From IMG/VR virus record IMGVR_UViG_3300045972_000807, positions 64,001-128,000 of that record: DNA of 64,000 nucleotides; one strand, 5' to 3'. A program made the translations under genes and the position numbers. The notes under the pieces are model-generated. The model was not told the DNA's origin, ran no database searches, and was given only the letters and a program-made list of their open reading frames with translations. Shown one piece after another: positions 11,501 through 32,835 of the stretch (within the stretch, counting starts at the first letter, position 1; the number at the start of each line of letters is the position of its first letter). The stretch comes from a virus.

Positions 11501-11673
11501 TCGTTACGCACGCCACCAAATGTGGTAACGAGCAAGTTATTTGAGGACGCGTCTTGCGTGAAGGGTGCTACGGCGGTCTCGCCGTTAAGCAGCAGGCTGG
11601 TATAGCCAAAGTAAGAGTCAAGGATAGCGGCTACAGCGGTAGCAGTACGAGCACGGCGGAGGTATCTAAACAT
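2506..11673 (-). CDS. Giant LamG/concanavalin A-like repeat virion adhesin (about 3055 aa, 14 LamG-like domains)
   Basis: Fourteen FTxExW-type motifs, each followed by WxHxAVxR and GYISNxRxVKG/GYIDDxRxTKG. The start is moved to MFRYLRR (11673) because it matches the paralog start, and the ORF-track extension overlaps a terminator hairpin. Confidence 0.88.
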   Translation of the reverse strand: MFRYLRRARTATAVAAILDSYFGYTSLLLNGETAVAPFTQDASSNNLLVTTFGGVRNDTFSPFDAGNYSTQFNGTTDFLTLPTTATANLGTSNFTFETWVYADSTGAGSIRQIAFLDGFNNGYVGLSVQITAADQLGITLASNLTNNITAAWTTYNQWTHIAVVRNGSVFTAYVNGVSIGTYSNASAMPAWTINNIGCYNNAYYYFKGYISNLRLVSGTALYNGTFTPSSTPLTAVSGTVILACQAPQFKDNSTNNFAVTVSGTPKVQPKVPFNYTPVAASAFFNGTTDYLTTATSAAAYAFGSGSLTIEAWVFQATGASTGTIFSSVVSSDDGLIFNLNSTGTLAASGSTTGISTSVATVPRNQWVHVAVTRNASSVWNFWINGVDAGGSTTVARNFTGINGNIGSWLTNTPFPGYISNLRVVKGTAVYTGSFTPPTAALSVISGTSLLTLQNAGAANNISFLDASLNDLAISRVGIPTQGTFSPFSQDGWSNYFPGGSSNSLSFPAANVAMGLGQFCIEAYVNPLSLASTNTIIESRAYNTTGTGTWQLAIDITTGLLNLYSLQAVSIIIAGPAIQTGVWTHVAISRDSANVIRLFVNGVLVNSVVNAFNFSSVNALFVGYNSDSSNLSFNGYISNVRVVKGDPVYTASFTPSTAPLTAIPGTALLTCQSNRYLDNSVNALTCTALGTVSVQATSPFEPVAAWSALTNGGSMYFNGTTDYLTIPDALVLQFGANNFTAECWVYPTATPASGATILCKLASASSFGQFSIYFGASSIVKTVLSSNGTSFDIASGVGTIAATINTWNHVALVRSGNVFTLWVNGAVSGTVTSALALNTSPGVPFSVGASANGTGMFNGGYISNLRIVNGTSVYTGLSTPYAQLADSSVADPYFQYNSLLLHGEGSNGAQNNTILDSSSNALTIARTGTPTQGTFSPFGNSGWSNYFTGVTGTQISVADTGGVFDFGDDTTGNCVPCTIEGWFNISTYATRQAIVNHYTSAGSGWNVSVMTSGFLNVGFQGNSGNILGTTTVTLNTWHHFAISGSDYNYRVYLDGVLQGVQTAYSDFGVGTVLVIGQLASASPMSGYVSNLRMIRGTALYTKNFAVPTAPLTAVAGTVLLTCNSNSFKDNSTYNLAVTPAGGSQCVPVCPLTVSSSYSASVNGGSLYFPGSEAVSAAPSSLLNITGDFTIECWIYPQYASYPAYAGITGASSSGGSNWDLFLWNGSLRLEVAGTTAVNIYNTGVVLAPNSWHHVAATRNGNVFTLWLNGVQNATVTTSTTVGTQAFSTFVGHTGDTTNVQRFVGYISNFRFVKGTALYNSAFSVPTAPLTAVSGTAMLLNGTNSAVLDSTGKNLVTTLGTAQTSTAAVKYGSSSLAFSGAVGTYATIPSSLGYAMGTGDYTVECWIYPTAFPATWRIITRGDGNGSLIGDATGQLLYYYSGSSYIAIPAAGGVAVNTWSHVAVSRTSGVTRIFHNGVAKASVTESTAMGATDLTLGSYSGGSQNYAGYIDDFRITKGVSRYTNSFQVPSSPVAAISSTSLLLLGTNLGAQDATGKNDGISMGGTTSTAQKKFGSRSLYFGGSSSDAILYPANPTMAFGTGDFTVETWMYPQSVTNNGIIQISPTRYPANNTGLDLALVTGKVQVAVAGSVYTSVATITVGSWYHVAVQRKSGVTKLFINGVMDTGIGMLADVTNYTGQFCVVGGYYSSGYAFVGYLDDVRVTQGYARYGLAGFTLPTTALPDSSATDPYFNQVSLLLHADGTSYSAPAANNNVIVDSSYNALTVTRTGSPTQGTFSPFGNNGWSGLFNGSTDYLTTASSTGFAFSSNFTMEAWVFPTASGTSRIFSFPSNTDEFLLLPANTVNYWDGTTNFTTSLTVALNSWSHVAVCKVGTAVTVYVNGVAGATGTSTYSTTASRALVIGRFGSSSTNFFSGYISNARIVNGTAVYTTAFTPTTAPLTAVAGGTSLLTLQSNRFKDNSGNNLALTVAGTPSVQANSPLAVSAYDPAVNGGSMCFPATTDSVSITTGLDNFAFGTGNFTIEAWVYQTSASLNVVMPSAGTNTWGFLTYLNGFYWQEGGANIYSAGSVPSNQWVHLAVSRSNGVLYRFINGVLIDFNNNTYNHTALTNRIVGSSGTGYVSNVRVIKGTALYTAAFTPPTAPLAVTGNTAWLLNGVGAGIVDGTGKNDVITVSGAAIQSSVVKYGTGAISFNGTNDFLRLQTGQPHLSVGTLDFTIEAWVYPTKQSGTQAIYGSQADGTTAAGSSFCCYISATTATCDVYIGATPYVATSPNPPANQWSHVAYVRSGNTWKTYLNGSLVGSTGLPASASINAGATTYAPAIGAINAGGNLFQGYISDFRFTKGVARYTGAFTPPAAALPNASDADSYFNQVSVLLNTNVQNVTRTVAKNNVFVDSSANNFAITSGGAPSQGAFSPFSNNGWSTNFNSSQYVTTPANTAYDIVGGDFTVECWINFTAYNAMGSTANQLVGTFTGGGGWLISINGVNTVSGIAFTSYTAGTGTTVTVSGISPTQMPLGVWHHVAVVKSGASLYFYLNGINYGGAQTAVSAAAGNALAVGVYQQNLSYAGNPNWNLSNMRIVKGTAVYTTNFSVPTAKLTAISGTSFLAFQDSRIKDNSTIAALFTVSGAPSVQAKSTFAVNSVYSADTHGASLYFNGTTDYITSAASSAYAFGTGDFTIEGWVYMTSFNSTANGVFQQGTSNFPSSTVNSVAFGTTGSTAWQIYSNNGNYTTTGIAAVTPVLNQWIHFAVVKASSVIKLYINGILGLSTPDGTNYTGTFFGVGSIYGTPSTDTFPGYISNLRVIKGTAVYTSAFTPPTAQLTAVTNTQLLLLGKTSGVSDTAGNNDVVLYGNAQVSSFSKVGSGSIALNGSTDYAVLPPQQTLQLGAGDFTIEFWMYLNALPSAYTRVFSISNTSVAGQGDEGLVIEIASNNVMTSTFISGTTSYGSVTDPVAITAGAWIHWAYTRNGTTSRLFRNGVLVATGNAGTAYVNWAATWKGYIGAWLGTSRFVNGYIDDLRITKGVCRYTGNFAVPTAAFPTN

Positions 11674-11713
11674 GATGGGGTTCTCTTGTGTTGTTAAATA
11701 TGAGACATGAAAC

Positions 11714-11761
11714 AAAAACGGCGATGGGCCGTACCCTGGGAAGGGCAAAGCACACCGCCGT
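11714..11761 (-). terminator. Rho-independent terminator-like hairpin after the collagen fibre gene
   Basis: Minus strand: ACGGCGGTG...CATCGCCGT followed by TTTTGTTTC. Confidence 0.55.
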
Positions 11762-11770
11762 CTATAGTCC

Positions 11771-12814
11771 TTAGTTCAGGACAGCCAGGATCGTGAAGTC
11801 AACATCAGCCAAGGTAGCGTCAGGCGTAGCGGGAGCCACGATAGACAGCTTATCGCCAACGCTAAACACAATAGCCGCTTGCGTGGACAATGCACCAGTA
11901 GCACCAGCGGCAGCAAACGTAAACGTCGCAACCGTAGAGCCATTCTTTTGCAGGTTCCACACAGCACTGGCGGTTGCAGCAGTCTTTGCAGCCACAATAG
12001 AACCTGCGAGGTTTGCAGGGATTGTGAAGGCCCGGCCAGCTGTAAAGCGCAAATCCACTTGAGACGCTGCAGGCACGCCGAAGCATGAGCCTGTAATGTC
12101 GTTAGGCAGACCAGTCCAGGTTGTAACCGAAGCTGTAGACGTTACCGAAGAGCCGTCAGCGCCAGTAGCACCGGTTGCTCCTGTAGCGCCAGTAGCACCA
12201 TTGGTCCCATTGGTACCGTTGGTTCCCGTAGCGCCGGTGGGTCCAGTTGCGCCGTTGGTTCCATTAGTACCGTTAGTACCGTTAGCTCCTGTAGGTCCGG
12301 TCGGGCCAGCTACGGTTGACGCTGCGCCTGTAGCACCAGTGGGGCCTGTTGGGCCAACAGCAGTAGAGGCGGCACCGGTTGCGCCTGTGGCACCAGTAGC
12401 TCCTGTGGCACCGGTTGAGCCTGTGGCACCCGCCGCGCCGTTAGTACCTGCAGTACCGTTGGTACCTTGGGGACCAATGGGGCCTGCTGCGCCGTCGAAG
12501 CCTTGCAGGCCACGAGCACCTGTAGGACCTGCGGCGCCGTCGGCTCCTGCGGGGCCAGTTGGGCCTGTGGCTCCGTCAGCACCTTGGGGGCCTGTAGGGC
12601 CTTGAGGACCCTGAATACCGGGAACGCCTTGTGCGCCCGCCGCGCCTGTGGGACCAGTGCTCGACTTGGCTGCAACGTCTTGCTGCAAACCATAGATGAT
12701 ACTGTCCAGCTGGAACAATGCAGCTTGTGCTGCATCTATGTCACCCAGCCGAGTGTCATAGACTGTACCCCCTGGTAGAGGAAGGTGCAGGTTCGGGGTT
12801 GAACCTATGCTCAT
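11771..12814 (-). CDS. Collagen-like (Gly-X-Y) fibre, 347 aa, with C-terminal globular tip domain
   Basis: AGGAG RBS precedes [16 protein letters not shown] (a phage-fibre TPNLxLP N-terminus). About 55 GXY triplets, then a beta-rich C-terminal domain (...[23 protein letters not shown]). Confidence 0.85.
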
Positions 12815-12992
12815 AAATACTCCTAGTAGGAATGTGGATTTCGTTTCCGGCGCATGAGGATCAATTGCCGGGGGTAGGGGATCTGTGGTAACCGTTGGAG
12901 AGCTAACTATTTCTATACCCACATAATTTAGCGTGCTCGCAGTTACCTCGAAGCTTTTAACTTTAACCATAATTATGTGGCCCAGAAACAGG

Positions 12993-13026
12993 AAAGGCGC
13001 TGGTTGTTTTAGCAACCAGCGCCTTT
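12993..13026. terminator. Strong bidirectional-type terminator hairpin
   Basis: Perfect 14-bp stem AAAGGCGCTGGTTG-ttttag-CAACCAGCGCCTTT. Confidence 0.75.
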
Positions 13027-13138: not shown

Positions 13139-15160
13139 TTAACGAAAATAGCTCACCAAGATCACATCGCCGACGAGCGGCGCTGTGTTCAAGGTGACTC
13201 CTGTTCCAGAAATTGTGTAGTCGTTGTCGCTGCCCATGTTTTGCAACACGCCGTTGACGTACAGTTGTTCTGTACCAGCGTGAGGTGTATTGGCCAGGAC
13301 GAACACAGCGTTGGTGCCATTGACGGTACCTGCTGGGATTTCGCGGACAACAACCTTGTCGTAGGTCAGATCGTTGGGCTGATCTTGTTCCAGCACATAC
13401 ACACGAGCAGCCAAGGCGGCTTCTGCGGCAGTAGCGCGGGCCAGTTCAGCACCTTCAGCAGCTGTAGCACGAGTCACTTCGGCGGCTACTGCATTGGTGT
13501 TCACCAATTCAGCGGCTGTGGCGCGCGAGGCTTCTGCGGCGATGGCTGTAGTCAGAGCGGACTCGGCAGCGGTAGCGCGAGCAGCTTCGTTCGACACCGA
13601 GGTGATGATCGGGCTGGTAGCTGAGGAGATAGCTGTGTCGCGGGCGGCGGCTTCGGCAGCAATCGCAGCTGTGTAGGCTGTGGTGATTGCAGCGTCGGCT
13701 GACGTACGGGCAGAAGCTTCAGCAGTAACGGCAGTGTTCCACAGTGCGTTGTCTGCGGCGATGGCCGTAGTGTAGGCAGTGGTGATCGAACCTTCGGCAG
13801 CGGTTGCACGGGTTGTTTCAGCACCAATGCTGGTACCCAGGGCAGCTTCAGCGGCCAGTGCGCGAGCCAGTTCAGTTGCATCGGCAGCAGCGAAGGCTGT
13901 GGAGATGGAACCTTCAGCGGCTGTAGCACGAGTCACTTCAGCAGCAACGGCTGTAGTCAGTGTGCCTTCGGCGGCAGTAGCACGTGAGGCTTCAGCTGCA
14001 ACAGCCGCGGTGAACGCGGTAGTAACAGCGGCGTCGCCAGCGATGCGTGCTGTAGCTTCGGAGTCGATGTTGCCTTGCAACACGCCTTCGGCGGCAGTTG
14101 CACGAGTCACTTCACCGGCCAGGTTGGTGGTCAGTGTGCCTTCAGCAGCAGTTGCACGGGTAACTTCAGCGGAAACAGCCGAGGTCAGAACGCCTTCAGC
14201 AGCAGTAGCGCGGGATGCTTCAGCAGCAACAGCGGCAATGCGGGCATTGGCTTCGGACGTGTCAGCGTTGGTGCGGGCCAGAACTTCGGCAGCCAGTGCA
14301 TCGGCAGCAGCTGTAACAGCAGCAGCTTCGGCAGCGGTAGCGCGAGTTGTTTCAGCGTCGGTGTAGGCAGCGGCAGCAGCAGCGATGGCCGTTTCAGCAG
14401 CAGTAGCACGTGTGACTTCAGTTGCCAGGTTTGCAGCAGTAGCCGAGGTACCAGCGAGTGCGGTGATGTTGGCTTGCAGCGTAGCTTCAGCAGCTGTAGC
14501 ACGAGTCACTTCGGCGCTGTCAGCGGACTGATAGGCAGAGGTGATGGCGCTTTCAGCGGCTTGGGCACGTGTGGACTCGGTCGTGATGGCCGTGGCGTTG
14601 TTGCCGTTGGCGGTGGACAGCGCAGCTTCAGCGGCCGTAGCGCGTGTAACTTCAGCAGCGATGCTGGTGTTCAGAGCGGATTCGGCAGCAGTTGCACGGG
14701 TGATTTCAGAGGCCAGGGCATCGGCAGATGAAGTGCTTGCAACGATCGCGGAGATCTGTGATTGCAAACCGGCTTCAGCTGTAGACGCACGCGATGCTTC
14801 AGCGGCCAGTGCTGTGTCCAGGGCCACGTCTGCTGTGAACAGAGAAGTAGCTGCGCCCAGGTAGTTGCTGTTGGTGGGGGCAACGTAAGCACCACCGGTG
14901 GTCAGGCCAGCGCCGGTCAGGGTGCCAGTGATCAGGCTTTGGATGGCAGTTGTAATGCTGCTGTCCGATGCTTCCCAAGCTTGGGTAGCGGCGTTGATGG
15001 AAGCTACGGTAGCCTCATCAGTTGCCAAGGTCGTGAAGATGTTCGCAATGTTGGTGCTGAGACCAGACAGGTATGCCTGGAACGCTGCATCAATTGCGGA
15101 CTGTGGAACGGAAGCAGTGCGTATCTGCGAGCCATTGATTGTGGTAGGGGTAGCTGCCAT
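13139..15160 (-). CDS. Long Ala-rich coiled-coil fibre (AEVTRATAAE repeats) with small C-terminal beta domain (domain W)
   Basis: More than 20 copies of AE(V/A)(T/S)RATAAE. The C-terminus is VREIPAGTVNGTNAVFVLANTP...YVNG...DYTISG...GDVILVSY. GGAGA RBS. Confidence 0.85.
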   Translation of the reverse strand: MAATPTTINGSQIRTASVPQSAIDAAFQAYLSGLSTNIANIFTTLATDEATVASINAATQAWEASDSSITTAIQSLITGTLTGAGLTTGGAYVAPTNSNYLGAATSLFTADVALDTALAAEASRASTAEAGLQSQISAIVASTSSADALASEITRATAAESALNTSIAAEVTRATAAEAALSTANGNNATAITTESTRAQAAESAITSAYQSADSAEVTRATAAEATLQANITALAGTSATAANLATEVTRATAAETAIAAAAAAYTDAETTRATAAEAAAVTAAADALAAEVLARTNADTSEANARIAAVAAEASRATAAEGVLTSAVSAEVTRATAAEGTLTTNLAGEVTRATAAEGVLQGNIDSEATARIAGDAAVTTAFTAAVAAEASRATAAEGTLTTAVAAEVTRATAAEGSISTAFAAADATELARALAAEAALGTSIGAETTRATAAEGSITTAYTTAIAADNALWNTAVTAEASARTSADAAITTAYTAAIAAEAAARDTAISSATSPIITSVSNEAARATAAESALTTAIAAEASRATAAELVNTNAVAAEVTRATAAEGAELARATAAEAALAARVYVLEQDQPNDLTYDKVVVREIPAGTVNGTNAVFVLANTPHAGTEQLYVNGVLQNMGSDNDYTISGTGVTLNTAPLVGDVILVSYFR

Positions 15161-15228
15161 GATGGATATTTCTCCGGGGGTTGAATTAAACTAACACACT
15201 AACAAAAAGAGTATCTTTGCAAAGACGT

Positions 15229-15918
15229 TCAATACGTGTACTCCACTATAACATTGTCAAAGGAATCCGGGTTAAAGTAATTATTTTGCCAGCCGATTGT
15301 TGCCCCAGCTATGAGGAAGTCTCCGCCGTAAGTGTACCGTATACCGTTTATCCAGATGACCACGCTAGGTGGGTCCAATGGGGTGTGAAGCAATTGCTTA
15401 TTACTAAGCCCTGTTTCACTTATTGCTATAAGCTCCTGAGTTTTAGTTCCGGTGGCTGGCGTTATTGTGCCAGCCACCGCATCCAAAATGTTACGCTCAT
15501 CAACAGCAAAGGCCTCAGCCGTATTGCCTGTGACAAGCTCGGTGTACACTGCGTCTGAGGGCAGCATACCTAGTTTGAGGTTTGGGGTTACCTGAGCCAA
15601 TAGACAAGCTGTTGAGTTGGTTACCGCGTCAACCTCGTCACCTGGTTCGTCCCATAAAATTGTACCACTTAAGGTACTCTGGTCTATGGGGGTAGCAGCC
15701 GTTAAGACGTATCTATGGAAGATACCTGGTATCTGCATGAACGTATTAACGTCGCTTGCAGGTATGTAAAGAACAAACCCAGGTGTAACGTCGTAGGCAC
15801 CGTTACCGGTAGCATCAGCTTGGTTAGAGAACTGGGCTGATTCAAATGTGTATTCTCCAGCGTTTCCAGTAGGCGTAAAGGCGCTGACTGTTAAAGCTGC
15901 ATTTATTGGACGCGCCAT
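15229..15918 (-). CDS. Fibre adaptor protein (N-terminal domain Y plus C-terminal domain W)
   Basis: The N-terminal ~150 aa are paralogous to 19310-20152 (RPINA, TGNAGEY, NQADATGNGA, LWDEP). The C-terminal LLHTP...WING...DFLIAG...DNVIVEY resembles the tip of 13139-15160. Confidence 0.75.
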   Translation of the reverse strand: MARPINAALTVSAFTPTGNAGEYTFESAQFSNQADATGNGAYDVTPGFVLYIPASDVNTFMQIPGIFHRYVLTAATPIDQSTLSGTILWDEPGDEVDAVTNSTACLLAQVTPNLKLGMLPSDAVYTELVTGNTAEAFAVDERNILDAVAGTITPATGTKTQELIAISETGLSNKQLLHTPLDPPSVVIWINGIRYTYGGDFLIAGATIGWQNNYFNPDSFDNVIVEYTY

Positions 15919-15930
15919 TACATTCAACCT

Positions 15931-17022
15931 TTAGAAGGACATTAGGAATACGATACCTGTCGTGCTTGCGGGCAAGGCGCCATACTGGAACATATTCCAG
16001 CTTGTACCACTTACCACAGCTATCGTGTTGCCCACAGCGCTAAGGCTAACACCATCTTGGCGAACCTGTTGGACTGGAACTATAGCGTTGTCAAAGCTAC
16101 TCCATGCGCCAGTGGGCTGGACTGGTATTGTCAAATTGTACGAGGTACCTGTGCGAGTGCCAGTTGCCAAGTGAATACGCATACCCAGCAACGTTATGTT
16201 GCTAACACCAGCAGGTGCGGTTAAGATACCTGCATTGATGTTGTTAACACCAGAGGCATTATGGGCAAAGGTGTAGCCCATAGAGTACGCTGCAGCTGTA
16301 CCCGAAGAACCACCAGTACCGCTGGAAGTAATTGTGAAAGTATTGGTAGTTACCGCGGTGATTAGACCGTTCTGAAACTCCACGTTAGCGTTGTGGACGA
16401 TAACCATCTCGCCGACAGAGTGACCGTGACCGTTGTCAGTGATAACCAGGTTTGTGCTGGTTTGTGCCCACGAAAGGCCGGTGGTAACGGGGGCGCTAGT
16501 GGCAACCCACACGGATTGACCTGTTGTGGTGTTGACTGGATAGCGGCAGGTTGTATCGTAAACCTTAGATACGCCACCGCCAGTGCCGCCAGATGCGCTA
16601 ATAGTGCCGTCACCTGCGATAGTAACGCCGGTACCCTGCTTTACGCCGCCCAGTACAGATGAGCTTGCAACAGGCAAGGTGTACGCTGAGGGGATAGAGG
16701 GTGTACCTGACAGATCGCTATAGGCGCCGGATAAGGCAACCGCAGCCAGGCTGGAGGTATTGGCTTTACCAGAAATTGCCGTAGCAACCTGCGCGGCTGT
16801 CTGGTAGCCAGCGTCATTGGTAAAGCCTGAGATAACAGTCGGTACTACGACCGCTGTAGTTTGAACGGAGTTGTCAGAAAACTTAACGCCTGAAGAGCCA
16901 GCAATTAGCTGTGCAGCTTTGAACGAGCCGGGCGTTGACAGCGCATTGGCACCTTCGCGCAATAGCTCTGTGTCAGTGCCAAAGTGTATGTGATTTCTCG
17001 CGTTGTCAATTATTATGGACAT
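15931..17022 (-). CDS. Short tail-fibre-like protein (363 aa) with FTNDAGY repeat and C-terminal domain X
   Basis: Start MSIIIDNARN lies downstream of a hairpin. Fibre repeats SGFTNDAGY and ALSGAYSDL. The C-terminal ~200 aa are highly similar to the tip of 20171-23911. Confidence 0.8.
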   Translation of the reverse strand: MSIIIDNARNHIHFGTDTELLREGANALSTPGSFKAAQLIAGSSGVKFSDNSVQTTAVVVPTVISGFTNDAGYQTAAQVATAISGKANTSSLAAVALSGAYSDLSGTPSIPSAYTLPVASSSVLGGVKQGTGVTIAGDGTISASGGTGGGVSKVYDTTCRYPVNTTTGQSVWVATSAPVTTGLSWAQTSTNLVITDNGHGHSVGEMVIVHNANVEFQNGLITAVTTNTFTITSSGTGGSSGTAAAYSMGYTFAHNASGVNNINAGILTAPAGVSNITLLGMRIHLATGTRTGTSYNLTIPVQPTGAWSSFDNAIVPVQQVRQDGVSLSAVGNTIAVVSGTSWNMFQYGALPASTTGIVFLMSF

Positions 17023-17053
17023 TGCTTGGTCGCCCTTCAAATCTTTAATAGAA

Positions 17054-17082
17054 GGGCCGGTGAATAAAATAAACACCGGCCC
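17054..17082 (-). terminator. Hairpin after the 727-aa fibre gene
   Basis: GGGCCGGTG...CACCGGCCC 9-bp stem with an AT-rich loop. Confidence 0.55.
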
Positions 17083-17104
17083 CGACGTAACCCACTAGCG
17101 TTGA

Positions 17105-19288
17105 TTAGACGATAGTGGTAGTTTTGATGCCAACAACCCAGGTGATCGAAGTTGCAGCAGCGCCTTGCACAGTGATGGCCAGACCGCTACCATCGGTAGA
17201 CGCATTTGCATCCCACGAGGTGTCTTCCAGGGCGATGATGTCTTTCAACACACTGCCGCCGACGATGCTGATAGTGCCTGCAACGTTCTTGATAGCGCCT
17301 TCGAGTGTGAAAGCACCAACCAATGCGCCGCCAGCTGTCTTGCCAACTACGTCAGCAGTGAACTGCACCACGGCGCCTGAGGCCACGGCCACGGTCAGAG
17401 CAGAAGTTGCAGTAGCGTCGGTTGTAGGCACTGTAGCCACGGCAGTACGAGTACCAGAGCCGCCGGCCAGCAGAGTTGCACCAGTCACGCTCAGGACACC
17501 AGCACCGTCAACAGCCAGACCAGAACCTACCTTCACACCGCCCAGCACCGAGGCAGTAGCCACGGGCACAGCAGTCAGGTAACCTGCGTCGTTGGTGAAC
17601 GCTGACACCACGGTAGGTACGGTCGGAATGGTGGGAGCACCAGACAGATCAGCGTATGCACCAGTGGTTGCCACAGTAGCCAGTGAGGCTGTAGTAGCGT
17701 AGGCGGCCAGGGCGGAGGTCAGGACGTAGCTGGACAGCGAAGCGGTCGTGGCGTACGAAGACAGAGCCGAGGTCAGAGCGTAGGGAGCCAGTGCGGTAGC
17801 AACGTTGCCAGCAGTTTGATAACCAGCGTCGTTGGTGAACGAAGACACGGTTGTGGGGACTGTCGGGATCGTTGGGGTACCGGTCAGGTCAGCGTATGAG
17901 CCTGACAGAGCAACAGCAGCCAAGCTGGAAGTGTCAGCCTTGCCAGCGATTGCGGTAGACACATTGGCAGCGGTCTGGTAGCCAGCGTCGTTGGTGAACA
18001 CGGACACCAGAGTCGGGATCGTCGGGATCGTCGGTGCGCCAATCAAAGCACTGTAAGCGCCGGAGAACGCAACAGCAGCCAGGTCAGCAGTGTTTGCCTT
18101 GAAGGCAACAGCAGTGGTCAGCGCAGCAGCTGCAGACTCGTCAGCAGCCAGGGCCGTTGCGATTTCAGCCAGTGTATCCAGTGCCGTAGGAGCAGCGCCT
18201 ACAACAGCAGCGATTGCGGCGGTGACTTGAGCAGCAGTCTGGTAGGTGGAGTCATTGGTGAACGCGCTAACGTTGGTAGGCACGGTCGGGATTGTGGGCT
18301 TGTTAATCAGGTCAGAGTACGAACCTGAAGTAGCCACGGTAGCCAGGGCGGTAGCGTCCACCTTGCCAGCGATTGCTGTAGCAACGTTTGCTGCGGTTTG
18401 GTAACCGGAGTCATTGGTGAAAGCAGAAACCACGGTAGGAACCGTGGGGATTGTGGGCAGGCCCAACAGGTCGGAGTACTGGCCAGATGTAGCCACTGTA
18501 GCCAGTGACGACGTTGTAGCGTAAGCGCCCAGGGACACCACAGTAGCGTAGGCGGCCAACGAAGCGTTGGTAGCGTATGCCGACAGGGAAGACGTTGTGG
18601 CGTAAGCCGACAGGGAAGCGATCGTTGCGTAGTCACCCAGAGCAGTAACCACTTGAGCGCTGGTCTGATAGCCGGCGTCGTTGGTGAATGCGCTCACCAC
18701 TGTAGGTACGGTCGGGATCGAAGGCTTGTTGCTCAGGTCGGTGTAGGAACCTGTAGTTGCCACTGTAGCCAATGCCGAGCTGAGAGCGTATCCAGCGTCA
18801 TTGGTGAAAGCAGAAACCACGGTAGGAACCGTGGGGATCGAAGGCTTGCCGGTCAGGTCAGAGTACACGCCGGAGAACGCAACAGGTGCCAGAGCAGAGG
18901 CGTCAACCTTGCCAGCAACAGACGTTGTCAGCGCAGCAGCAGCGGATTCATCGGCAGCCAGGGCAGCAGCGATTTCAGCCAGAGTGTCCAGTGCTGTAGG
19001 AGCAGCGCCTACAACAGCAGCAATCGCTGCGTCCACAGTGCTTGTCACATTGGCAGCAGTTTGGTAGCCAACGTCATTGGCGAAGTCACTGACCTTGGTC
19101 GGCACAGTAACGACGGTGGGAGTAACGAGATCCAAGCCACCCGAAGATGTATTGAACGCGAGCACTTGGCCGTTTTGCGCGGACGTGGTGTCCGGAAAAA
19201 CGATAGTACCAACGCCAGATGCGGGGCCACGCAGTACCAAGCCACCGGCTGTGCCAGCATTGTCAAGAACGATACCTTTGATTGTCAT
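17105..19288 (-). CDS. Repetitive tail-fibre shaft protein (727 aa) with C-terminal domain Z
   Basis: Multiple PTIPTVPTVVSAFTNDAGY and LATVATSGSYSDL repeats, two APTALDTLAEIA motifs and LSAYATTAS 9-mers. The C-terminal domain is shared with 19310-20152. Confidence 0.85.
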   Translation of the reverse strand: MTIKGIVLDNAGTAGGLVLRGPASGVGTIVFPDTTSAQNGQVLAFNTSSGGLDLVTPTVVTVPTKVSDFANDVGYQTAANVTSTVDAAIAAVVGAAPTALDTLAEIAAALAADESAAAALTTSVAGKVDASALAPVAFSGVYSDLTGKPSIPTVPTVVSAFTNDAGYALSSALATVATTGSYTDLSNKPSIPTVPTVVSAFTNDAGYQTSAQVVTALGDYATIASLSAYATTSSLSAYATNASLAAYATVVSLGAYATTSSLATVATSGQYSDLLGLPTIPTVPTVVSAFTNDSGYQTAANVATAIAGKVDATALATVATSGSYSDLINKPTIPTVPTNVSAFTNDSTYQTAAQVTAAIAAVVGAAPTALDTLAEIATALAADESAAAALTTAVAFKANTADLAAVAFSGAYSALIGAPTIPTIPTLVSVFTNDAGYQTAANVSTAIAGKADTSSLAAVALSGSYADLTGTPTIPTVPTTVSSFTNDAGYQTAGNVATALAPYALTSALSSYATTASLSSYVLTSALAAYATTASLATVATTGAYADLSGAPTIPTVPTVVSAFTNDAGYLTAVPVATASVLGGVKVGSGLAVDGAGVLSVTGATLLAGGSGTRTAVATVPTTDATATSALTVAVASGAVVQFTADVVGKTAGGALVGAFTLEGAIKNVAGTISIVGGSVLKDIIALEDTSWDANASTDGSGLAITVQGAAATSITWVVGIKTTTIV

Positions 19289-19309
19289 ATAGACTCCGAG
19301 TTAAGGCAG

Positions 19310-20152
19310 TTAAGCCGTGAAAATTGTCAGCGTAGTTGATGCTGACCAGTTGAGGGAAGTTGCGGAAGATCCAGTTACCTGAATATCGAGAGCGCCTGTA
19401 GCTGCATTGGCTGAGGCCTGCGCGTCCCAGCTCGTATTAGAGCGCGCCACTATAGTTGTTAGGGTGTTGCCCATAAGGGCTAGTGTATTCAAATTGTCAT
19501 CCATGTAGAGCGTACCTTCGATGATAAAGATACAACGCTGATTAGGCGCGCCTGCTCTGTGGCCTACTACTATGGTGCGGAAAACAGCAGTGCTCAAACT
19601 GGGCAAAGTCAAATCTTGAACGGGACCCAGGGTAAGCGGTGTTGCGTTGGTTGTGGAACCTGAGACGTCTATAGTCGTAGTTACAAGACCCCCGCCCCCG
19701 CCACCCAGGCCAATGTTGTCAGTAACATCCCTAGAGTCCAACACCATAGCCTGGATGTCGGAACCGCTAGGCAAGTTGGCATACACAGCGTTGCTGGGAA
19801 CAAGGCTAAGCCCATGGTTGGGCGTAGCCTGCGCTAGCATTACATAGGCGCCACTAGACGGAATGTCTACCTCAGCAGTAGGCTCATCCCACAGCATAGT
19901 TCCGCTCAAGAGACTGGCACCTGTTGGGCTTACTGAGGTAAGCTTGTATCGGTGCATGGCTCCTGATACAGGACTGCCAGTGTTAACGTCTGTGGGCTGG
20001 ACATAGACTTTGCAGCCTATGGTAATGTCCGCCGCGCCGTTGCCTGTGGCATCCGCTTGGTTGTCAAAGTTAGCGTCAGTGAAGGAATACTCGCCTGCGT
20101 TCCCAGTACCTACGAACGAACTAACGAATAGGGTTGCGTTTATTGGCCGCAT
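19310..20152 (-). CDS. Fibre adaptor protein (N-terminal domain Y, Gly linker, C-terminal domain Z)
   Basis: The N-terminus is paralogous to 15229-15918. After GGGGGG comes TTNAT...VVG...FIIEG...SWDAQAS...LDIQVTG..ATSLNW, matching the tip of 17105-19288. Confidence 0.75.
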   Translation of the reverse strand: MRPINATLFVSSFVGTGNAGEYSFTDANFDNQADATGNGAADITIGCKVYVQPTDVNTGSPVSGAMHRYKLTSVSPTGASLLSGTMLWDEPTAEVDIPSSGAYVMLAQATPNHGLSLVPSNAVYANLPSGSDIQAMVLDSRDVTDNIGLGGGGGGLVTTTIDVSGSTTNATPLTLGPVQDLTLPSLSTAVFRTIVVGHRAGAPNQRCIFIIEGTLYMDDNLNTLALMGNTLTTIVARSNTSWDAQASANAATGALDIQVTGSSATSLNWSASTTLTIFTA

Positions 20153-20170
20153 TTATAGCATCCTTACTGA

Positions 20171-23100
20171 TTAGAAGTTAGCCAGGATAACGATGCCAGT
20201 TGCGGACGCTGGAAGCGCCCCAAACTGGAACGCCGCGAAGCTACCACTGATTGATGTTGCAATGGTGTTACCCACTGCGCTGAGAGTAGTACCGTCCTGC
20301 CGAATTTGCTGGACTGGAATCCATACGTCATCCATGCTTGTGTCTCCACCAGCACCGTTAAGGATGCCAGCCGGGACATTCAGCGTGTAGGTTGTACCTG
20401 TCCGTGTGCCTGTTGCCAGGTGAATACGGACACCCATGAGCTGAATGTCTGCACCTGCAGTAGCTGGGGCGCTTATTGTGCCTCCGCTAATAGAACCAGA
20501 AGGTCCGTTATGTGCAAACGTGAAGCCCATCGTGTAGTTACAGCTAAAGCCCATTGCGGCTCCTGCACCGCTACTGGTAACCGTAAACGTATTTGCAGTA
20601 ACCGAGGTAATCAACGCTACTTGGTAATCCACATTGGCATTACGGATGATAGCCAGATCGCCTACCGAGTGACCGTGAGCGTTGTAGGTCAGAGTAAGTG
20701 CTGTACCTACCTGAGCCCACTGCACACCCACACGAATCTGAGAAGCACTGGTAACTGAGACAGCAAGTCCCGTAGTGGTCAGAACCTGATAGCGCGACAC
20801 AGTATTGTGGATAACGCCGATCATTGCTCCGCCAGGTCCCTGTGCTCCGTCTGCTCCAGTAGCACCGGTTGCACCTGTGGGGCCTGCTACGGTTGAGGCC
20901 GCACCAGTAGCACCGGTTGGTCCTGCTGGGCCAGTAGAGCCTGTTGGACCTGCTGGACCTGCTGGTCCAGGTACTGTAGACGCCGCGCCTGTTGGGCCGT
21001 TTGCACCAGTAGGCCCAACAGGACCTGCTACGGTTGAAGCGGCACCTTGGGGTCCTGTAGCACCTGTGGGTCCTGCTACACCTTGAGGTCCAGGTACTGT
21101 AGAGTTTGCACCTTGGGGTCCAGTAGGACCTGCAGGGCCGGGTACTGTTGAGGTTGGGCCTGTGGCTCCCGTTGGACCTACGGTACCTTGGGCTCCCGTA
21201 GGACCTGTGGGACCTGCTGACCCTTGAAGACCTGCGGGTCCAGTGGGTCCAACGATAGCGCCTACGTCTACCCAGGCTGAGCCACTCCAAGTGTACAGGT
21301 TACCGTCAGCTGCAACCACGTATGAGTCGTTAGTTGCCTGTCCGGTAGAAGGCAAACTAGCTACAGTAGCTACAGTTCCCTTCATGTTTATGCCCACACC
21401 CGCAGGGCCTTGGGCGCCAGTGGGTCCTGCTACGCCAGTTGTACCTGTTGCTCCGTTTGCGCCTGTGGGTCCAGCGGGGCCCGCAGAACCAGTATTGCCA
21501 GTTGGGCCTGTAGGTCCTGCGACACCAGTAGTTCCCTGGATACCCTGAGAACCTGTGGGGCCAACCGCTCCAGTGCTACCGGTTGCACCTGTAGGACCAG
21601 CTACGCCAGCTGAGCCTTGGGCACCGGTGGGGCCTGCAGGGCCAGCTGGGCCGGCAGAACCTGTAGGGCCAGCAACCAAGCTAGCAGCACCTGTCGCGCC
21701 TGTTGGTCCAGCGGGGCCAGTAGCACCGGAGGGACCTGCGACACCAGTAGTACCCTGGATACCTTGGGCGCCAGTAGCACCCGTCGGGCCTACAATAGCG
21801 CCTACGTCTGTCCAAGCTGAGCCTGTCCACGAGTACAGGTGTCCGTTAGCCGACACCACGTAGGCGTCGTTAACAGCTGAGCCTGTTGCTGGAAGAGCAC
21901 CAACCGTCGCTACAGTACCTTTCAGGTTTATGCCAATGCCAGCTATACCTTGTGAGCCTGTGGCACCAGTGGGGCCAGCAACGCCGGACACACCTTGTGA
22001 GCCTGTAGCACCAGTAGGTCCGGTTGAGCCTGTGGGTCCTGCTACAGTGGACGCCGCGCCAGTAGCACCTGTGGGGCCGGTCGGGCCAGTGTTACCAATA
22101 GGTCCTTGAGCACCTTGAGCTCCAGCAGGTCCTTGCGAACCAGACGTGCCTGTTGCACCTGTAGCACCGTTTGCACCTGTGAAGCCGATAGGGCCTACAG
22201 CGCCTTGAGGACCTGTTGCGCCTACAGAGCCTGTAGCGCCTGTTGGTCCAGCAACGCCAGTGGTTCCCTGCGCGCCAGTAGCTCCCGTTGGGCCGGCTAT
22301 ACCTTGTGCGCCAGTAGCTCCAGCAACGCCTTGAATACCTTGGGCGCCGCCGTTACCTTGCAGACCCTGAATGCCTTGTGAGCCGGCAGGGCCTGTAGAA
22401 CCTGTGGGGCCTGCAACGCCTTGCGAACCAGCAGGTCCCTGAGCGCCAGTAGGGCCAACCGAACCTTGGGGACCCTGGATTAGGCCAACGTCAATCCAGC
22501 CAGCTCCATTCCACGAGTACAGGTGTCCGTTAGCGTTAACGACATACGCATCGCTTTGGGTAGCCGTTGTGGGCAGGTTAGCTGTTGTGGCTACGTTACC
22601 CTTCAGGTTGATACCAATACCTGCAGAACCTTGGATACCTTGTGCTCCAGTAGCGCCTGTTGGTCCAGCAACGCCAGTGGTTCCCTGCGCGCCAGTAGCG
22701 CCAGTAGGCCCAACGTTACCTTGGATACCTTGGATACCTTGAGTACCTTGTGTACCCATAGGGCCCAGGCCACCAACAGGTCCAGTTGCGCCAGTGGGGC
22801 CTGTAGGTCCCTGAGAGCCAGTGTTTCCTTGAATACCTTGGAGGCCTTGCAAGCCTTGTGGGCCTTGATTACCCTGAGGTCCAACCACAGTAGACGCCGC
22901 GCCGGTTGCACCAGTAGCTCCCTTAGGACCTGTGGCACCTGCAACTCCAGGCACACCTTGAGGACCTTCAACGGTACTGTCAGCGCCTTGAGGACCTTGA
23001 GGACCTGTTGGTCCCATTAGGCCTTCGCTGCCTGGAGCACCAGTGGGTCCAACAGTACCGGGCTGCATTGGCACCACGAGCGACTCAGCAAAGAACGTCG

Positions 23101-23911
23101 CAATGTCGCCGTTCTCGAACAGGTTGTTCCACGGTGCTGTGGTCTTGAAGTGGTAGCAGTCAGTAACCACGCCGTCAACACGATACAGGACGGTACCAAC
23201 CATCGAGCATGTGCGAGCGATACCGGCATTTGCACCGGTACGTGGAGTGACAAAGAATGAGATTGTGCGATCTACCTTGGACAGCGCGCCTAGGCTAGCA
23301 CTGTTTACAGGTATGTAGATGCTGGTGAAGTCTGACGCTGCGATAGTCAAATCGCCCAGGTTGTAGGAACCTGCGAGACGCCAAGAGCTACCGTCGGACA
23401 CTGCGATCAGGGACTTGCCTGAGATCACATAGGTATTTGTAATACCTGTTTCCTGAGTGTACGTCGTAGAGTCCGCCGCGTTAGGCAGTGCGTCAACAGA
23501 CGGCAGGACGTTCAGGTTACCGGCCGCAGCTGAGAGGGCCACCGGGGAGAACGGTGCGCGACCGCCTGCCTGCATAGGCAAGATACAAGCAACAGAAACG
23601 TTGTCTGTAATAGGAATGTCGGAATCGGACGAACCCAGTGCGACGCAGACGCCGTTAAAGTACAGTCCGATCTCGCCCATTACGATAGCTGGGCTACCGA
23701 GGCCGTGAGAGATTGAAACGGAAAAGGACGGAGAGCCTCCGTCCATTCCTGTCAAGGGCGCTTGTCCGTAATAGACTTTAGCTCCGTGAATGTCAGTGTC
23801 GTTACTTGTGGCTATATAGCCACTGGCATTGCCGACCGCGAAGTCCAGGCTGCTTGGCACGCCCGTAGTAGCGAACAACTGATAGCCGTAATTGGTTAGT
23901 GCGAAAAGCAT
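20171..23911 (-). CDS. Baseplate-anchored long collagen fibre (1246 aa): tail-collar-type N-terminus, GXY shaft with three globular knobs, C-terminal domain X
   Basis: The N-terminal ~285 aa are shared with 33564-36017 ([14 protein letters not shown]). About 200 GXY triplets are interrupted by three GINxKGxVATxxxLP...DxYVV...LYxWxG..WxDVG units. Confidence 0.88.
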
Positions 23912-23982
23912 AGTAGGGCGTGCCTTTGTCGAAGATGAATTAAGGGCGCCCTAAGGCGCTCAAGATAAAATTGTTTAGAGTT

Positions 23983-26799
23983 TCAGAACTCTATTGGTGG
24001 AGGTGGAGTTAGATAACTTATTGTTCCGTTAGTTTTATAGGCATAGATTGAAGTACCGTCCCAGTAACAGGGTCCTGCAGGTGGAGAATCCGAACCGTGG
24101 GACATAGGGAACCAAGATAGACCGTCATCATAGGAATAGGCTCCCAAGGTTAGGCCGGTAACAACAAAGCACTTATTCCCAAATCCCAGTCCATTGTAGG
24201 TTGTAAGAGCCTTGGTTTGCGACCAGGTGTTAGACGGGGTATAGTAGGTGTGAATACCTGCACTGCTAACAGCTACGCCGTTAACTTCTCCTAGACAGAA
24301 GTCAAACGTTGTTCCGCCCTGTACCGTATTCGGACCCGAAGTCCAGTTTGCACCGTCGTCAAAAGAAATTATGCAAGAGTCATAAGCATAGATGTAGTTG
24401 TAATCCATGAACCAGGTGTTGTTACCCAGGTACCGTGTGTTACCGCTTCCACCCCAGACGCCGTTACCTAATGGGCTATTAGCTGGAACAGGAAGAAGGT
24501 TCCAGGTTACACCGCCGTCGGTCGACCTATGGGCACCCATAGTGTTTATTACCTGGCGGCCCCAGCTGTCTCCCGAAACCAACACGTTAGTAGTAGGATT
24601 ATAGTCTATGGAGTTACGCAATGGCGTAGAGTAGTTAGACCCAAGGACCTTGCTGGTCCAGATAAAGCCATCTGTGGAGTAGTACATCGTGCCTTGGGAC
24701 TTTACGTTGTACTGCCCAGAGTTGGTGATAGCCCAGCTTGTTACCTCATAGCCGAAATATCTTGGCTCCCATGTTTTACCGTCGTCAGTAGACTTTAAGG
24801 CGCATATAGCGTTACCAGAGTACATAACCCCGGCAGCGTCCCTACGCATACCAACCATGTGAACAGGTTGAAGCATAGCGTCGGTGTGCCAAGTTACGGC
24901 GTCATCTGACCAAACTCTAAAGCTTGTAGCAACTTGAAAAGAAAGATGGAACCTGCCTTGCGGAGTACAGGTTATGAAGTAGGGAATGCCTGAGCAAGGT
25001 ACCTTAACGGTTGTCCAGGTTACACCCATGTCGTCGGTGTACGCTATGCTTGTCCCAAGCTGAGCCGCACCGGCTGCGACTAAACCTACTACTCGGCTCC
25101 CATTGCTGGCAAAATCTGAAAATATAGCCAATGGGGTTACACGCTTTGTCCACGTTAAGCCGTCAGGAGAGACAATGACCTCCTTGGTGTTAGTGGTCAT
25201 TATGTAATAGGTACCTGTCCAGATGTGGTACCCGCCAGCCGCGCCTACCCCGGTTGGGAACGTAACTTTATTCCAGTTAACTCCGTCTGCGGAATACACA
25301 ATATGGCCAGCACCGGTGGCAAGGAACTGGCTACCGTTCCAGGATAGTCCCCGGAAGTTAGCTGCGGCTGCGGGAGTCTTGGCTACGTTCTTTATCCAGG
25401 TAAACCCACCGTCTTGTGAACAGTCAATAAACCCGGAGTTTCCGCCCAAAACTACCGTACCACCCACACCTGCACCACAGTAAACCTGGACCGCCGTAAA
25501 GCTACTGCCAGTAAGAGTTGGCGATGATACCGTAGTCTGAACATCGTAGTACCAGTCCAGACCGTTATAGGTCATGAATAGCTTGGTAGCAGTGGTAAAC
25601 AAGGCAGTGAAGGCTCCACAATCCCAAAGCTTATATGTCGCAGGAGCACTGAATACTGTGGTACCGCAATTCCACCAGGTGTCTCCTCCATTATTGGAGT
25701 AGAACATTTTGTTGGATATGTTGTAGGCAAATAGACCTAGACTTGTTGCCGTTACGCTGTGCAGATTAGAGCAGGACCCTGTAGTTAGGTCAAGTGCTGG
25801 AGTGGACTTGGTTATTTCCCAGTTTAGACCTTGGTCGGGAGAACGGCCAAAATAATAAGACTTGGCGTGACCAAAAATCCAGTTTCCGTCTGAGCAGTAC
25901 ATGGTGTATGCTTCAGGATACTTGGATAAGTCTCTTGTCCAGTTTGCACCGTCAGGAGAAGTGAATCGCTTCCCGCCGAAGTTAACTACAAACTGCGAAC
26001 CTGTCCAGCAGCCTGGCGTAGGCTGTGAAGGACCTGTGCCATCGCCACCCGCCGCTACGAGACCGGTAGAGGCCCCGGTCCAAGTAACTCCGCCGTCCTG
26101 AGTTGAAAACCAGTACCCACCGGAGATGGTCATAAATACGGCTTGCCCAGCATTGTTGGTAAGAAATCCAGCTACGGCATTCCCAACGTTAAAGATACCT
26201 GCGTAGGCAAAGTTCTTTAGGACCCATGTCGTCCCATTAAAGGTCAAGGTGTCCAGTATGTACGAGGTACCTGACCTGCCGTAGCCGTAAAAGGCAAATA
26301 CTGAACCAGCGCCGCACCAAGCCACGCCGGTATAGGTTCGAGTGCCGTACTGGTTATTTATACCAGTGAAGCCAATAAAGTCTGTGGTTGCGTACGACTT
26401 GAAATAACCCATAAACATATAGGTATTACCATCGTAGGCCACACCCAACAATTGGGTATTGGCTGTGTCCGGCATAACTATTCTTTTCCATGTAACCGTA
26501 TCTGTGGAGTACATGGCAAACTGGGTTGTAGTAGTGCCGTCGCTTTCGCTACCTACAACTATCCAACCCCAACCCACCCAGAGAACCTGAGTTAGCATAG
26601 AACCCAAGGTGGCTATTGTGGGTATAGCGTCCCAGGTTAATCCGTCGGAGGACAAGCGCACGGTACCATGGTTACCCACAGCTAAGCCGTACCCGGGTCC
26701 CCAAGCCATGCTCTTTATTAACTCTAGAGAATGCTTTTGGTACCACACCGGGGGATTACGAGATTTGCCGTAGTAAGGTTCTACAAGTAGCTTGGACAT
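23983..26799 (-). CDS. Asp-box (BNR) repeat beta-propeller protein, probable fibre tip / receptor-binding protein (938 aa)
   Basis: About 16 S/T-x-D-x-G-x-T/N-W boxes (SSDGLTW, TQDGGVTW, SPDGANW, STDDGKTW, SYDDGLSW and others). The start MSKLLVEP overlaps the upstream stop (TAATG). Confidence 0.82.
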   Translation of the reverse strand: MSKLLVEPYYGKSRNPPVWYQKHSLELIKSMAWGPGYGLAVGNHGTVRLSSDGLTWDAIPTIATLGSMLTQVLWVGWGWIVVGSESDGTTTTQFAMYSTDTVTWKRIVMPDTANTQLLGVAYDGNTYMFMGYFKSYATTDFIGFTGINNQYGTRTYTGVAWCGAGSVFAFYGYGRSGTSYILDTLTFNGTTWVLKNFAYAGIFNVGNAVAGFLTNNAGQAVFMTISGGYWFSTQDGGVTWTGASTGLVAAGGDGTGPSQPTPGCWTGSQFVVNFGGKRFTSPDGANWTRDLSKYPEAYTMYCSDGNWIFGHAKSYYFGRSPDQGLNWEITKSTPALDLTTGSCSNLHSVTATSLGLFAYNISNKMFYSNNGGDTWWNCGTTVFSAPATYKLWDCGAFTALFTTATKLFMTYNGLDWYYDVQTTVSSPTLTGSSFTAVQVYCGAGVGGTVVLGGNSGFIDCSQDGGFTWIKNVAKTPAAAANFRGLSWNGSQFLATGAGHIVYSADGVNWNKVTFPTGVGAAGGYHIWTGTYYIMTTNTKEVIVSPDGLTWTKRVTPLAIFSDFASNGSRVVGLVAAGAAQLGTSIAYTDDMGVTWTTVKVPCSGIPYFITCTPQGRFHLSFQVATSFRVWSDDAVTWHTDAMLQPVHMVGMRRDAAGVMYSGNAICALKSTDDGKTWEPRYFGYEVTSWAITNSGQYNVKSQGTMYYSTDGFIWTSKVLGSNYSTPLRNSIDYNPTTNVLVSGDSWGRQVINTMGAHRSTDGGVTWNLLPVPANSPLGNGVWGGSGNTRYLGNNTWFMDYNYIYAYDSCIISFDDGANWTSGPNTVQGGTTFDFCLGEVNGVAVSSAGIHTYYTPSNTWSQTKALTTYNGLGFGNKCFVVTGLTLGAYSYDDGLSWFPMSHGSDSPPAGPCYWDGTSIYAYKTNGTISYLTPPPPIEF

Positions 26800-27197
26800 T
26801 AGGTTCTCACATAAAGGGTAACGCAATAGGCGTCGGACGGTTGCCCCATAACGTTTACAATCCGGTACCCGAAGGCGTCAGGTCCCCGGTAAGTTATCTT
26901 AGGCGTGTATGCCAACCCTAACTGATTTTCTGAGATAGTAGCAATGCCGTTGGCTGGCTGGGACAGAATCTCGATTGTACACCGGTACCCTCCCTGAAAC
27001 TGCCAAGCCGTATGATTGTCTGCCTTTGATATTAGCTTAGGGTCTATGGGGTAAGCCCCTTGAATAAGCCATTTGCTAAGGTCTATTACGAAAGGCCTTA
27101 AAACCTGGGTTGCTGGCGTGTGGACCAAAATGTCCTCGGCCACTGGTATGAAGTGCCTAAAGAAAGGCTGGGTAAGTTTTATGGAATGTCCTGCCAT
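26799..27197 (-). CDS. Small Ig/cadherin-like (Big_9-type) virion protein
   Basis: IEILSQPANGIATI...LAYTP..YRGPDAFGYRI is the typical tandem-Ig motif. Confidence 0.7.
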   Translation of the reverse strand: MAGHSIKLTQPFFRHFIPVAEDILVHTPATQVLRPFVIDLSKWLIQGAYPIDPKLISKADNHTAWQFQGGYRCTIEILSQPANGIATISENQLGLAYTPKITYRGPDAFGYRIVNVMGQPSDAYCVTLYVRT

Positions 27198-32779: not shown

Positions 32780-32835
32780 AAAGTATCTCCAATGAAAAGA
32801 AAGGTTGGTTGAGGTGAACTATGAAATTAGAGTGG

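Follow-up and report, generated by a model that had tools for sequence, protein, structure and literature searches.

A putative X-Y connector pair and matched terminal knobs in a fibre gene cluster of an uncultured jumbo phage

The stretch of DNA analysed here (the window, 64,000 nucleotides (nt) in length) covers positions 64,001 to 128,000 of the IMG/VR virus record IMGVR_UViG_3300045972_000807, a 171.8-kb record with a completeness estimate of 65%. Its tail sheath shares 38% identity with the sheath of PaBG, a jumbo phage of Pseudomonas, and 32% with those of phiKZ-like phages, and the virus is an uncultured PaBG/phiKZ-like jumbo myovirus. Between positions 13139 and 23911, flanked by genes for giant LamG-repeat proteins and by sheath genes, lie six co-oriented open reading frames (ORFs), all on the minus strand, which an earlier note on this DNA had described as a daisy chain of fibre genes; the ORF list and the translations place all six where that note had put them. 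By alignment, the six genes are two paralogous three-gene modules of the form [fibre..X]-[short Y-T]-[fibre..same T], where X and T are C-terminal domains, Y is an N-terminal domain, and the knob T is Z in the first module and W in the second. Both features of this layout, a gene ending in X followed by a gene starting with Y, and an adaptor ending in the same knob as the next fibre, recur across related loci and point to a putative connector between fibres and to a rule of matched knobs.

The first gene in transcription order, g1246 (20171-23911), encodes the trunk fibre. A non-collagen N-terminal domain of ~285 amino acids (aa) is followed by Gly-X-Y collagen tracts, broken three times by a globular insert of ~50 aa, and then by the C-terminal X domain (aa 1034-1246; 20174-20812), which is delimited by blastp to the X domain of g363 and by a 29-sequence alignment and is the proposed socket for Y. 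Membership of the Pfam family Collagen (PF01391) is clear (E = 1.4e-67 over 10 stretches; 223.7 bits against a cut-off of 27.2), and PHROG tail-fibre families are matched as well. Sequence searches of Pfam, PHROG and PDB give no relative for the N-terminal domain, and a supposed likeness to the P2 gpH-type N-terminal domain was dropped for that reason. The second gene, g280 (19310-20152), begins 18 nt after g1246 and encodes a short adaptor that is resolved into two domains by its AlphaFold2 (AF2) model: Y (aa 1-148; 19709-20152), followed by a GGGGG linker, and Z (aa 156-280; 19313-19687), which matches the C-terminal knob of gp42 from Klebsiella phage Kp9. The third gene, g727 (17105-19288), encodes a repeat fibre matched by PHROG tail-fibre repeat families, with ~9 FTNDAGY-type repeat units held between an N-terminal strand read from the sequence (19244-19288) and a C-terminal Z knob (aa 610-727; 17108-17461), of which aa 610-723 are matched by a Z profile built from adaptors alone.

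The second module repeats this order. The short fibre g363 (15931-17022), related by blastp to both g1246 and g727, has a single repeat unit placed between a g727-like N-terminal strand and an X domain (15934-16563, by blastp). Orthologues of g363 begin at an MSI... ATG, which in the window is the ATG at 17022; the alternative start, a GTG at 17076 that would yield 381 aa, sits within a hairpin 3' of g727. The short adaptor g229 (15229-15918; 232 aa from a TTG at 15927, the form called g232 below) follows after 12 nt and comprises a Y domain (15472-15918, by blastp) and a W domain (15232-15450), a class defined from 10 adaptor clusters. The last gene, g673 (13139-15160), encodes an Ala/Thr-rich fibre, probably a coiled coil, that ends in W (aa 608-673; 13142-13339). 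Only g1246 has a large N-terminal domain; g727, g363 and g673 start with short conserved N-terminal strands. The six-gene order is kept at 43-50% identity in four lineages, namely the window and the related loci L003, L029 and L039, the last of which confirms it only as far as its contig extends.

All-vs-all blastp of the six proteins returns significant sharing of X, Y and Z, as the earlier note had proposed, and every short motif quoted there is present. The X domains align between g1246 (aa 942-1246) and the 381/363-aa protein (aa 79-381) with 45% identity (E = 2e-58), the Y domains between g280 (aa 2-147) and g232 (aa 6-151) with 51% identity (E = 3e-48), and the Z domains between g280 (aa 191-269) and g727 (aa 643-717) with 36% identity (E = 1e-6), the Z pair also giving a Smith-Waterman z of 11.2. 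The claim that W is common to the adaptor and to g673 fails in direct pairwise comparison of g232 with g673 (z = 1.5; 179 of 2000 shuffles) but holds by profile: a profile made from adaptor W domains alone finds g673 (aa 608-672, E = 6e-11) and no other ORF of the window. In addition, the adaptor homologues P0043, P0057 and P0024 each match both copies of W. Because of the adaptor-only profile match and of the homologues that bridge the two copies, we regard the W domain as real but remote. When the isolated T domains were searched against Pfam, only W gave matches, to DUF4183 (6e-4) and DUF2460 (1.5e-4), both sub-threshold and not used.

The Y family comprises 131 clusters at 50% identity among 1.84 billion representatives, and Y occupies residues 1-150 in essentially all 131. 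Most members are 215-300 aa long and ~20 are 350-2561 aa, and the cargo joined to Y can be as small as a knob of 70 aa or as large as a fibre of 2,400 aa. Neither Y nor X belongs to a Pfam or PHROG family. Searches for relatives in cultured phages, by megablast with the region and by tblastn with g280, were both empty, a search with the Z domain gave no match there, and g363 matched cultured phages only through its FTNDAGY repeat. Related loci, all of them metagenomic, were gathered by four routes (exact-protein look-up, viral contigs, metagenome contigs and a start from the X side). At all 48 loci where the gene directly upstream of Y could be read, it carries X at its C-terminus, and ~38 loci remain after removal of near-duplicates; the order that the earlier note had seen in the window, each X-tipped gene followed by a Y adaptor, extends to its relatives. 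The upstream X was assigned in 25 metagenome loci by the X profile (E <= 4e-59), and the same succession of an X gene, a Y-T gene and a T-ending fibre gene is present in L027 and L028, two loci reached by starting from X. The X-Y intergenic gaps run from -11 to 30 nt, and the complete pair (a C-terminal X of ~210 aa, a gap of at most 30 nt and an N-terminal Y of ~150 aa) occurs twice in the window. We judge it highly probable that X:Y is a fibre-to-fibre connector, as yet putative, because the adjacency is invariant with near-coupled spacing, the terminal positions are strict, and Y combines freely with cargo, features that mark an N-terminal anchor and the site where it docks. A complex prediction for an X trimer with one Y scored 0.00, which is below the mark and counts neither way.

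Four clusters of the Y family (P0025, P0070, P0074 and P0085) have an N-terminal Y together with a C-terminal X. The locus of P0025 (L005, 1282-3951) has the order [..X][Y..X][Y-W'][fibre..W']. Such Y..X fibres are self-complementary on paper, and they could chain head to tail if the X:Y contact is promiscuous.

The C-terminal parts of the 101 short adaptors fall into 30 classes, and genomic contexts are at hand for five unrelated T classes, named Z, W, W', T3 and T4. Each class profile, built from adaptors alone, matches only the C-termini of fibres that lie downstream of an adaptor of the same class. The Z profile matches the L003 fibre L003_579 (E = 3.5e-16) and g727 (E = 2.4e-12); the W profile matches, besides g673, L028_379 (E = 2.8e-9) and L018_364 (E = 9.3e-9); the W' profile matches L027_466 (E = 3.9e-7), L016_491 (E = 9.8e-6), L003_595 (E = 7.3e-5) and L005_564 (E = 1.2e-3); the T4 profile matches L009_640 (E = 5e-19), and the T3 profile L006_615 (E = 6e-21). 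No off-class match falls below E = 0.09. Additional matched pairs occur in L029, L036, L037, L039 and L046. Counted over the five classes, 16 of the 18 non-redundant short adaptors precede a fibre whose knob is of their own class, and none of these 16 pairs is cross-class, which bears out the statement in the earlier note that an adaptor ends in the same domain as the fibre that follows it. Among the long Y-headed fibres, none of four has a C-terminal globular domain in common with its downstream genes (16/18 vs 0/4, hypergeometric p ~0.002 by our own count).

Other genes are interspersed with the fibre genes in several of these loci. A gene for a GIY-YIG/NUMOD3 homing endonuclease (L039, 2955-3671; Pfam E = 3e-14 and 9e-11) is inserted precisely at the junction of a Y-Z adaptor with the Z fibre that belongs to it, and is the sole gene that separates the two. 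Glycosyltransferase genes (GT9, GT4) adjoin fibre genes in L021 (6774-7679) and L006 (4552-5940) and may serve fibre glycosylation; that of L021 overlaps the end of a Y-collagen adaptor gene and precedes the gene for another collagen protein. In L033 (4255-5703), a 482-aa protein encoded downstream of the T4-class adaptor ends in a motif that reads as W-like in the sequence and that the class profiles do not match at E <= 0.01.

The AF2 model of g280 is confident, with a predicted local distance difference test (pLDDT) of 92.9, and contains a Y beta-barrel with one helix, the glycine linker and an eight-stranded Z sandwich. Superposition places Z (g280 aa 159-275) on the knob of Kp9 gp42 (7xy1_A, residues 649-777) with a structural Z-score of 9.8 and a root-mean-square deviation of 2.8 A over 112 aligned residues, and on the knobs of the Acinetobacter tailspikes AP1 (6e1r_A, Z-score 8.1) and AM24 (Z-score 7.3). 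In these respects Z looks like a tailspike or fibre knob: an eight-stranded jelly-roll, located at the extreme C-terminus and superposable on solved knobs. Middling matches are given by TNF-like and related heads (PLTL lectin, Z-score 6.1; Pgp3, 6.3; PRD1 P5, 5.3), and the fold match to Ena subunits is weak (Z-score 5.7). As modelled in the monomer, the Z sandwich is complete, with high confidence (pLDDT >90) and no obvious missing strand. Among the viral predicted structures of BFVD, 128 have one domain of the g280 model (E <= 1e-3; the output gives no ranges, and the match may be to either domain), many of them collagen- or YadA-like fibres from uncultured phages and giant viruses. The fold of Y finds generic barrels only (Z-score <= 6.3). 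The AF2 model of X, taken from the g363 paralogue, is all-beta (pLDDT 87), and its likeness to solved structures is convincing only over a small barrel, which resembles one in the phi92 endosialidase (Z-score 8.1). The W domain exists on its own as the 96-aa gp359 of Bacillus phage G (L026, 6938-7228), which is 42% identical to the C-terminus of g673 (E = 3e-12), and no W-ending fibre was found in the phage G genome at E <= 0.01.

The earlier note had also observed that the 727-aa and 363-aa fibres start alike. Taken as a pair, the two N-termini have only ~9 residues alike and the similarity is not significant (z = 0.4); what stands is a type-specific motif, [GS]-I-x-[LI]-[DEN]-N-[AS]-x-[TN], derived post hoc from the same sequences on which it was scored. 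It is confined to the N-termini of the Z-fibre and of the X-fibre type that follows it, in the window and three further lineages; a six-frame scan of 1.1 million residues gave no other match. A hint from L003 that the two strands co-vary within a genome was rejected by L029.

Codon usage sets two of the fibre genes apart. Over 19 genes, the effective number of codons (Nc) is lowest for g727 (35.7) and g673 (41.1), the two genes in which a strong bias had been noted by eye; a gene for a 347-aa sheath-like protein comes next (42.0), and the remaining genes range from 48 to 61. An origin of the low Nc in tandem repeats was considered and rejected, because there are few tandem repeats at the DNA level. 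The hairpins said to follow the same two genes were both found on the minus strand. One, with a 9-bp GC-rich stem, lies directly 3' of the g727 stop codon (17054-17088, with the stem given as 17054-17082; by sequence reading, the pairing in the hairpin listing being weaker), and the other, with a 14-bp stem returned by the hairpin search, lies ~110 nt downstream of g673 (12993-13026). Terminator-like sites overall are no commoner than in shuffled sequences (7 vs 8.7). A TAATTCA / TAATTTCA motif on the minus strand lies upstream of g1246 (23920-23945), of g673 (15170-15195) and of the 347-aa sheath-like gene (32815-32830), and is not found upstream of g280, g727, g363 or g229. Possibly a late promoter, the motif would delimit the units g1246-g280-g727 and g673.

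Three neighbouring genes complete the locus. Downstream of the cluster are a second collagen-like fibre gene (11771-13015), which encodes 414 aa and falls in a PHROG family of tail-fibre C-termini, and a gene for a 3080-aa protein with 14 LamG-like repeats (2506-11748), neither of which has X, Y, Z or W. Upstream of the trunk gene lies a 947-aa gene (23983-26826) with weak BNR/Asp-box matches (E = 4e-4) and no PHROG family.

Our favoured reading, to which we give about an even chance, is that the cluster encodes compound virion fibres of fixed composition. At the X:Y junction, the C-terminal X would dock the N-terminal Y of the protein encoded next; g280 would sit on the tip of the collagen trunk g1246, and g229 on the short fibre g363. 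The short Y-T proteins would serve as tip adaptors, each coupling through its knob (Z or W) the next-encoded fibre with the same knob. The knob might take the conserved N-terminal strand of that fibre, or the coupling might consist of a like-with-like contact or co-assembly of the two knobs. The virion would carry one or two such appendages, either segmented or branched, anchored via the N-terminal domain of g1246. Coupling through T would agree with the absence of mismatches, the restriction of the match to shaft-less adaptors, the tight operon spacing and the conserved order, and with the short N-terminal strands of g727, g363 and g673, as is typical of docking secondary fibres.

Several observations weigh against this reading. 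Phage fibres usually attach by an N-proximal part, and a like-with-like contact would hang the fibre by its C-terminus. The fold modelled for Z is that of knobs at the distal end of a spike or fibre, and the match between adaptor and fibre could mean a shared ligand specificity instead of a physical link. Trees of the eight X and eight Y paralogues are unresolved and assign no Y to an X, and they show no orthogonal specificity that would enforce an ordered chain. Finally, the Y protein of L024 (303 aa, of which 155 aa form a separate head) has no matching fibre in the 4-6 kb downstream, and L032/L033 has a T4-class adaptor with no T4 fibre within ~6 kb downstream. Because these two adaptors lack a partner fibre, T can function alone.

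Such partner-less adaptors sit comfortably with independent fibres, an arrangement in which X:Y mounts Y-T on the trunk with no link onward and T is a terminal ligand-binding or trimerising head. One head would then be present on two scaffolds, as a knob at the trunk tip and on a long fibre that stands free, and the T of the adaptor and the adjacent next gene would recombine as one cassette. The resemblance of Z to distal C-terminal domains of tailspikes and fibres, and to the TNF-like lectin, speaks for this arrangement, as do the 128 BFVD proteins, many of them fibres, with one or other domain of the g280 model, and the stand-alone W of Bacillus phage G. But phages with several receptor-binding proteins (RBPs) normally have proteins that differ in specificity, and mismatches would be expected to be common, whereas there are none in 16 pairs. 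The arrangement also leaves the restriction of matching to shaft-less Y proteins unexplained, and it needs three extra attachment sites for fibres with only short N-terminal strands. We consider independent fibres possible, if rather unlikely. Alternatively, an adaptor that needs no more than some trimerising head to render Y trivalent might have borrowed the 3' end of its neighbour repeatedly, by local duplication, and the two copies of T would be functionally unrelated. C-terminal heads commonly nucleate the trimerisation of fibres, and 30 C-terminal classes in 101 short adaptors imply frequent replacement, both of which suit such a historical by-product. However, the pairs are old (26-43% identity) and yet matched, in five classes and ~16 lineages, and the same accident must have recurred independently for each class, which makes this account very improbable.

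The earlier note had gone further and proposed an open-ended polymer, in which the T knobs are strand-accepting sockets: g280 would nucleate a (727)n polymer, g363 would cap it, and g229 would nucleate a second polymer, (673)n. The appendage would be a pilus-like fibre of trimers whose order and length are set by the strands and knobs expressed, and g727 and g673 would polymerise head to tail because each carries both a strand and a socket, the ratios of expression fixing the length. This proposal accounts for the perfect matching of T and for the gene order. The N-terminal motif that the Z-fibre and the following X-fibre have in common in four lineages is in its favour, as is the position of g727 and g673 as the genes with the strongest codon bias, each followed by a hairpin, and the Y..X proteins of L005, P0070, P0074 and P0085 are likewise self-complementary on paper. 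The complete sandwich modelled for Z tells weakly against the polymer, and so does the homologous N-terminal region of ~200 aa in the fibres of classes T3 and T4, whose knobs are unrelated and are followed by their adaptors, although their first 15-50 residues are different. The co-variation of N-terminal strands seen in L003 fails in L029. In L006, L009, L018 and similar loci the T-ending fibre is the last of the row, so its knob would be an empty socket; the adaptors of L024 and L033 have no partner fibre nearby; and no resolved X/Y specificity would enforce the ordered chain. We regard polymerisation as improbable. On this evidence, X:Y is the part of the plug-and-socket proposal of the earlier note that has good support, T may or may not act in this way, and polymerisation goes unsupported.

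Taken at the level of domains and gene order, the fibre loci of jumbo phages contain a putative connector family that is widespread and had not been described, and they follow an unusual rule of matched knobs. Fibres with several segments or with branches occur in T4 and in phages of Klebsiella and Acinetobacter, where each system has connectors peculiar to itself, whereas the X-Y pair is portable and recurs in at least 131 protein clusters from uncultured jumbo phages with near-perfect synteny. We know of no described counterpart of the matched-knob rule. If the proposed junctions are true, they would provide a readable grammar by which the architecture of jumbo-phage fibres could be predicted from sequence, a new set of orthogonal connectors with which the host range of phages could be engineered in laboratory systems, and a testable case of protein-protein joints arising by the copying of end-domains. 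If the polymer were true, the cluster would encode a programmable polymeric virion appendage, which would explain very long whisker-like appendages, and the Y..X links in relatives would chain likewise through X:Y.

Among known systems, chaperone-usher pili and Ena fibres are built of beta-sandwich subunits, each of which inserts an N-terminal strand into the next, with ordered tip subunits, a rod and a terminator subunit. They are an analogue for the polymer model only, and they differ from it in that the modelled Z is already a complete sandwich and that the subunits here would be long trimeric fibres rather than single-domain pilins. The knobs of Kp9 gp42, AP1, AM24 and Fri1 resemble Z in fold at 9-14% sequence identity. 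Whereas their knob ends a catalytic beta-helix, Z ends a repeat fibre and also sits on a Y anchor.

A closer parallel in organization is offered by the branched RBPs of Klebsiella and Acinetobacter phages, described as a modular system in which RBP1 bears an anchor and a T4gp10-like branching domain and a conserved docking peptide of RBP2 binds that domain; secondary fibres that attach to another fibre typically have short N-terminal strands (PMC6872550, PMC13352976). The likeness to the present cluster would be the modular, swappable docking of a secondary fibre on a primary one. No T4gp10-like domain is found in g1246 or g363 by Pfam or PHROG sequence searches. The arrangement here differs in that Y is a folded domain of 150 aa, in that docking is proposed to take place at a C-terminal tip and not close to the N-terminus, and in the matched-knob rule, which has no counterpart there.

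The long tail fibre of phage T4 consists of adjacent, separately encoded segments, gp34-gp35-gp36-gp37, joined head to tail, with the N-terminus of the trunk on the baseplate (PMC3004832). The likeness to T4 is that of a segmented fibre encoded by adjacent genes, with joints, proposed from synteny, comparable to gp34/gp35-36 and gp36/gp37. The six proteins have no homology to T4 gp34-37 in searches of Pfam, which returned Collagen only, or PHROG, which returned generic collagen and repeat tail-fibre families and no match for g280, g363 and g229. In contrast to T4, the cluster described here has a portable X:Y pair that is reused twice per genome and fused to many cargoes, and its adaptors copy the C-terminal knob of the next fibre, a copy that T4 does not have.

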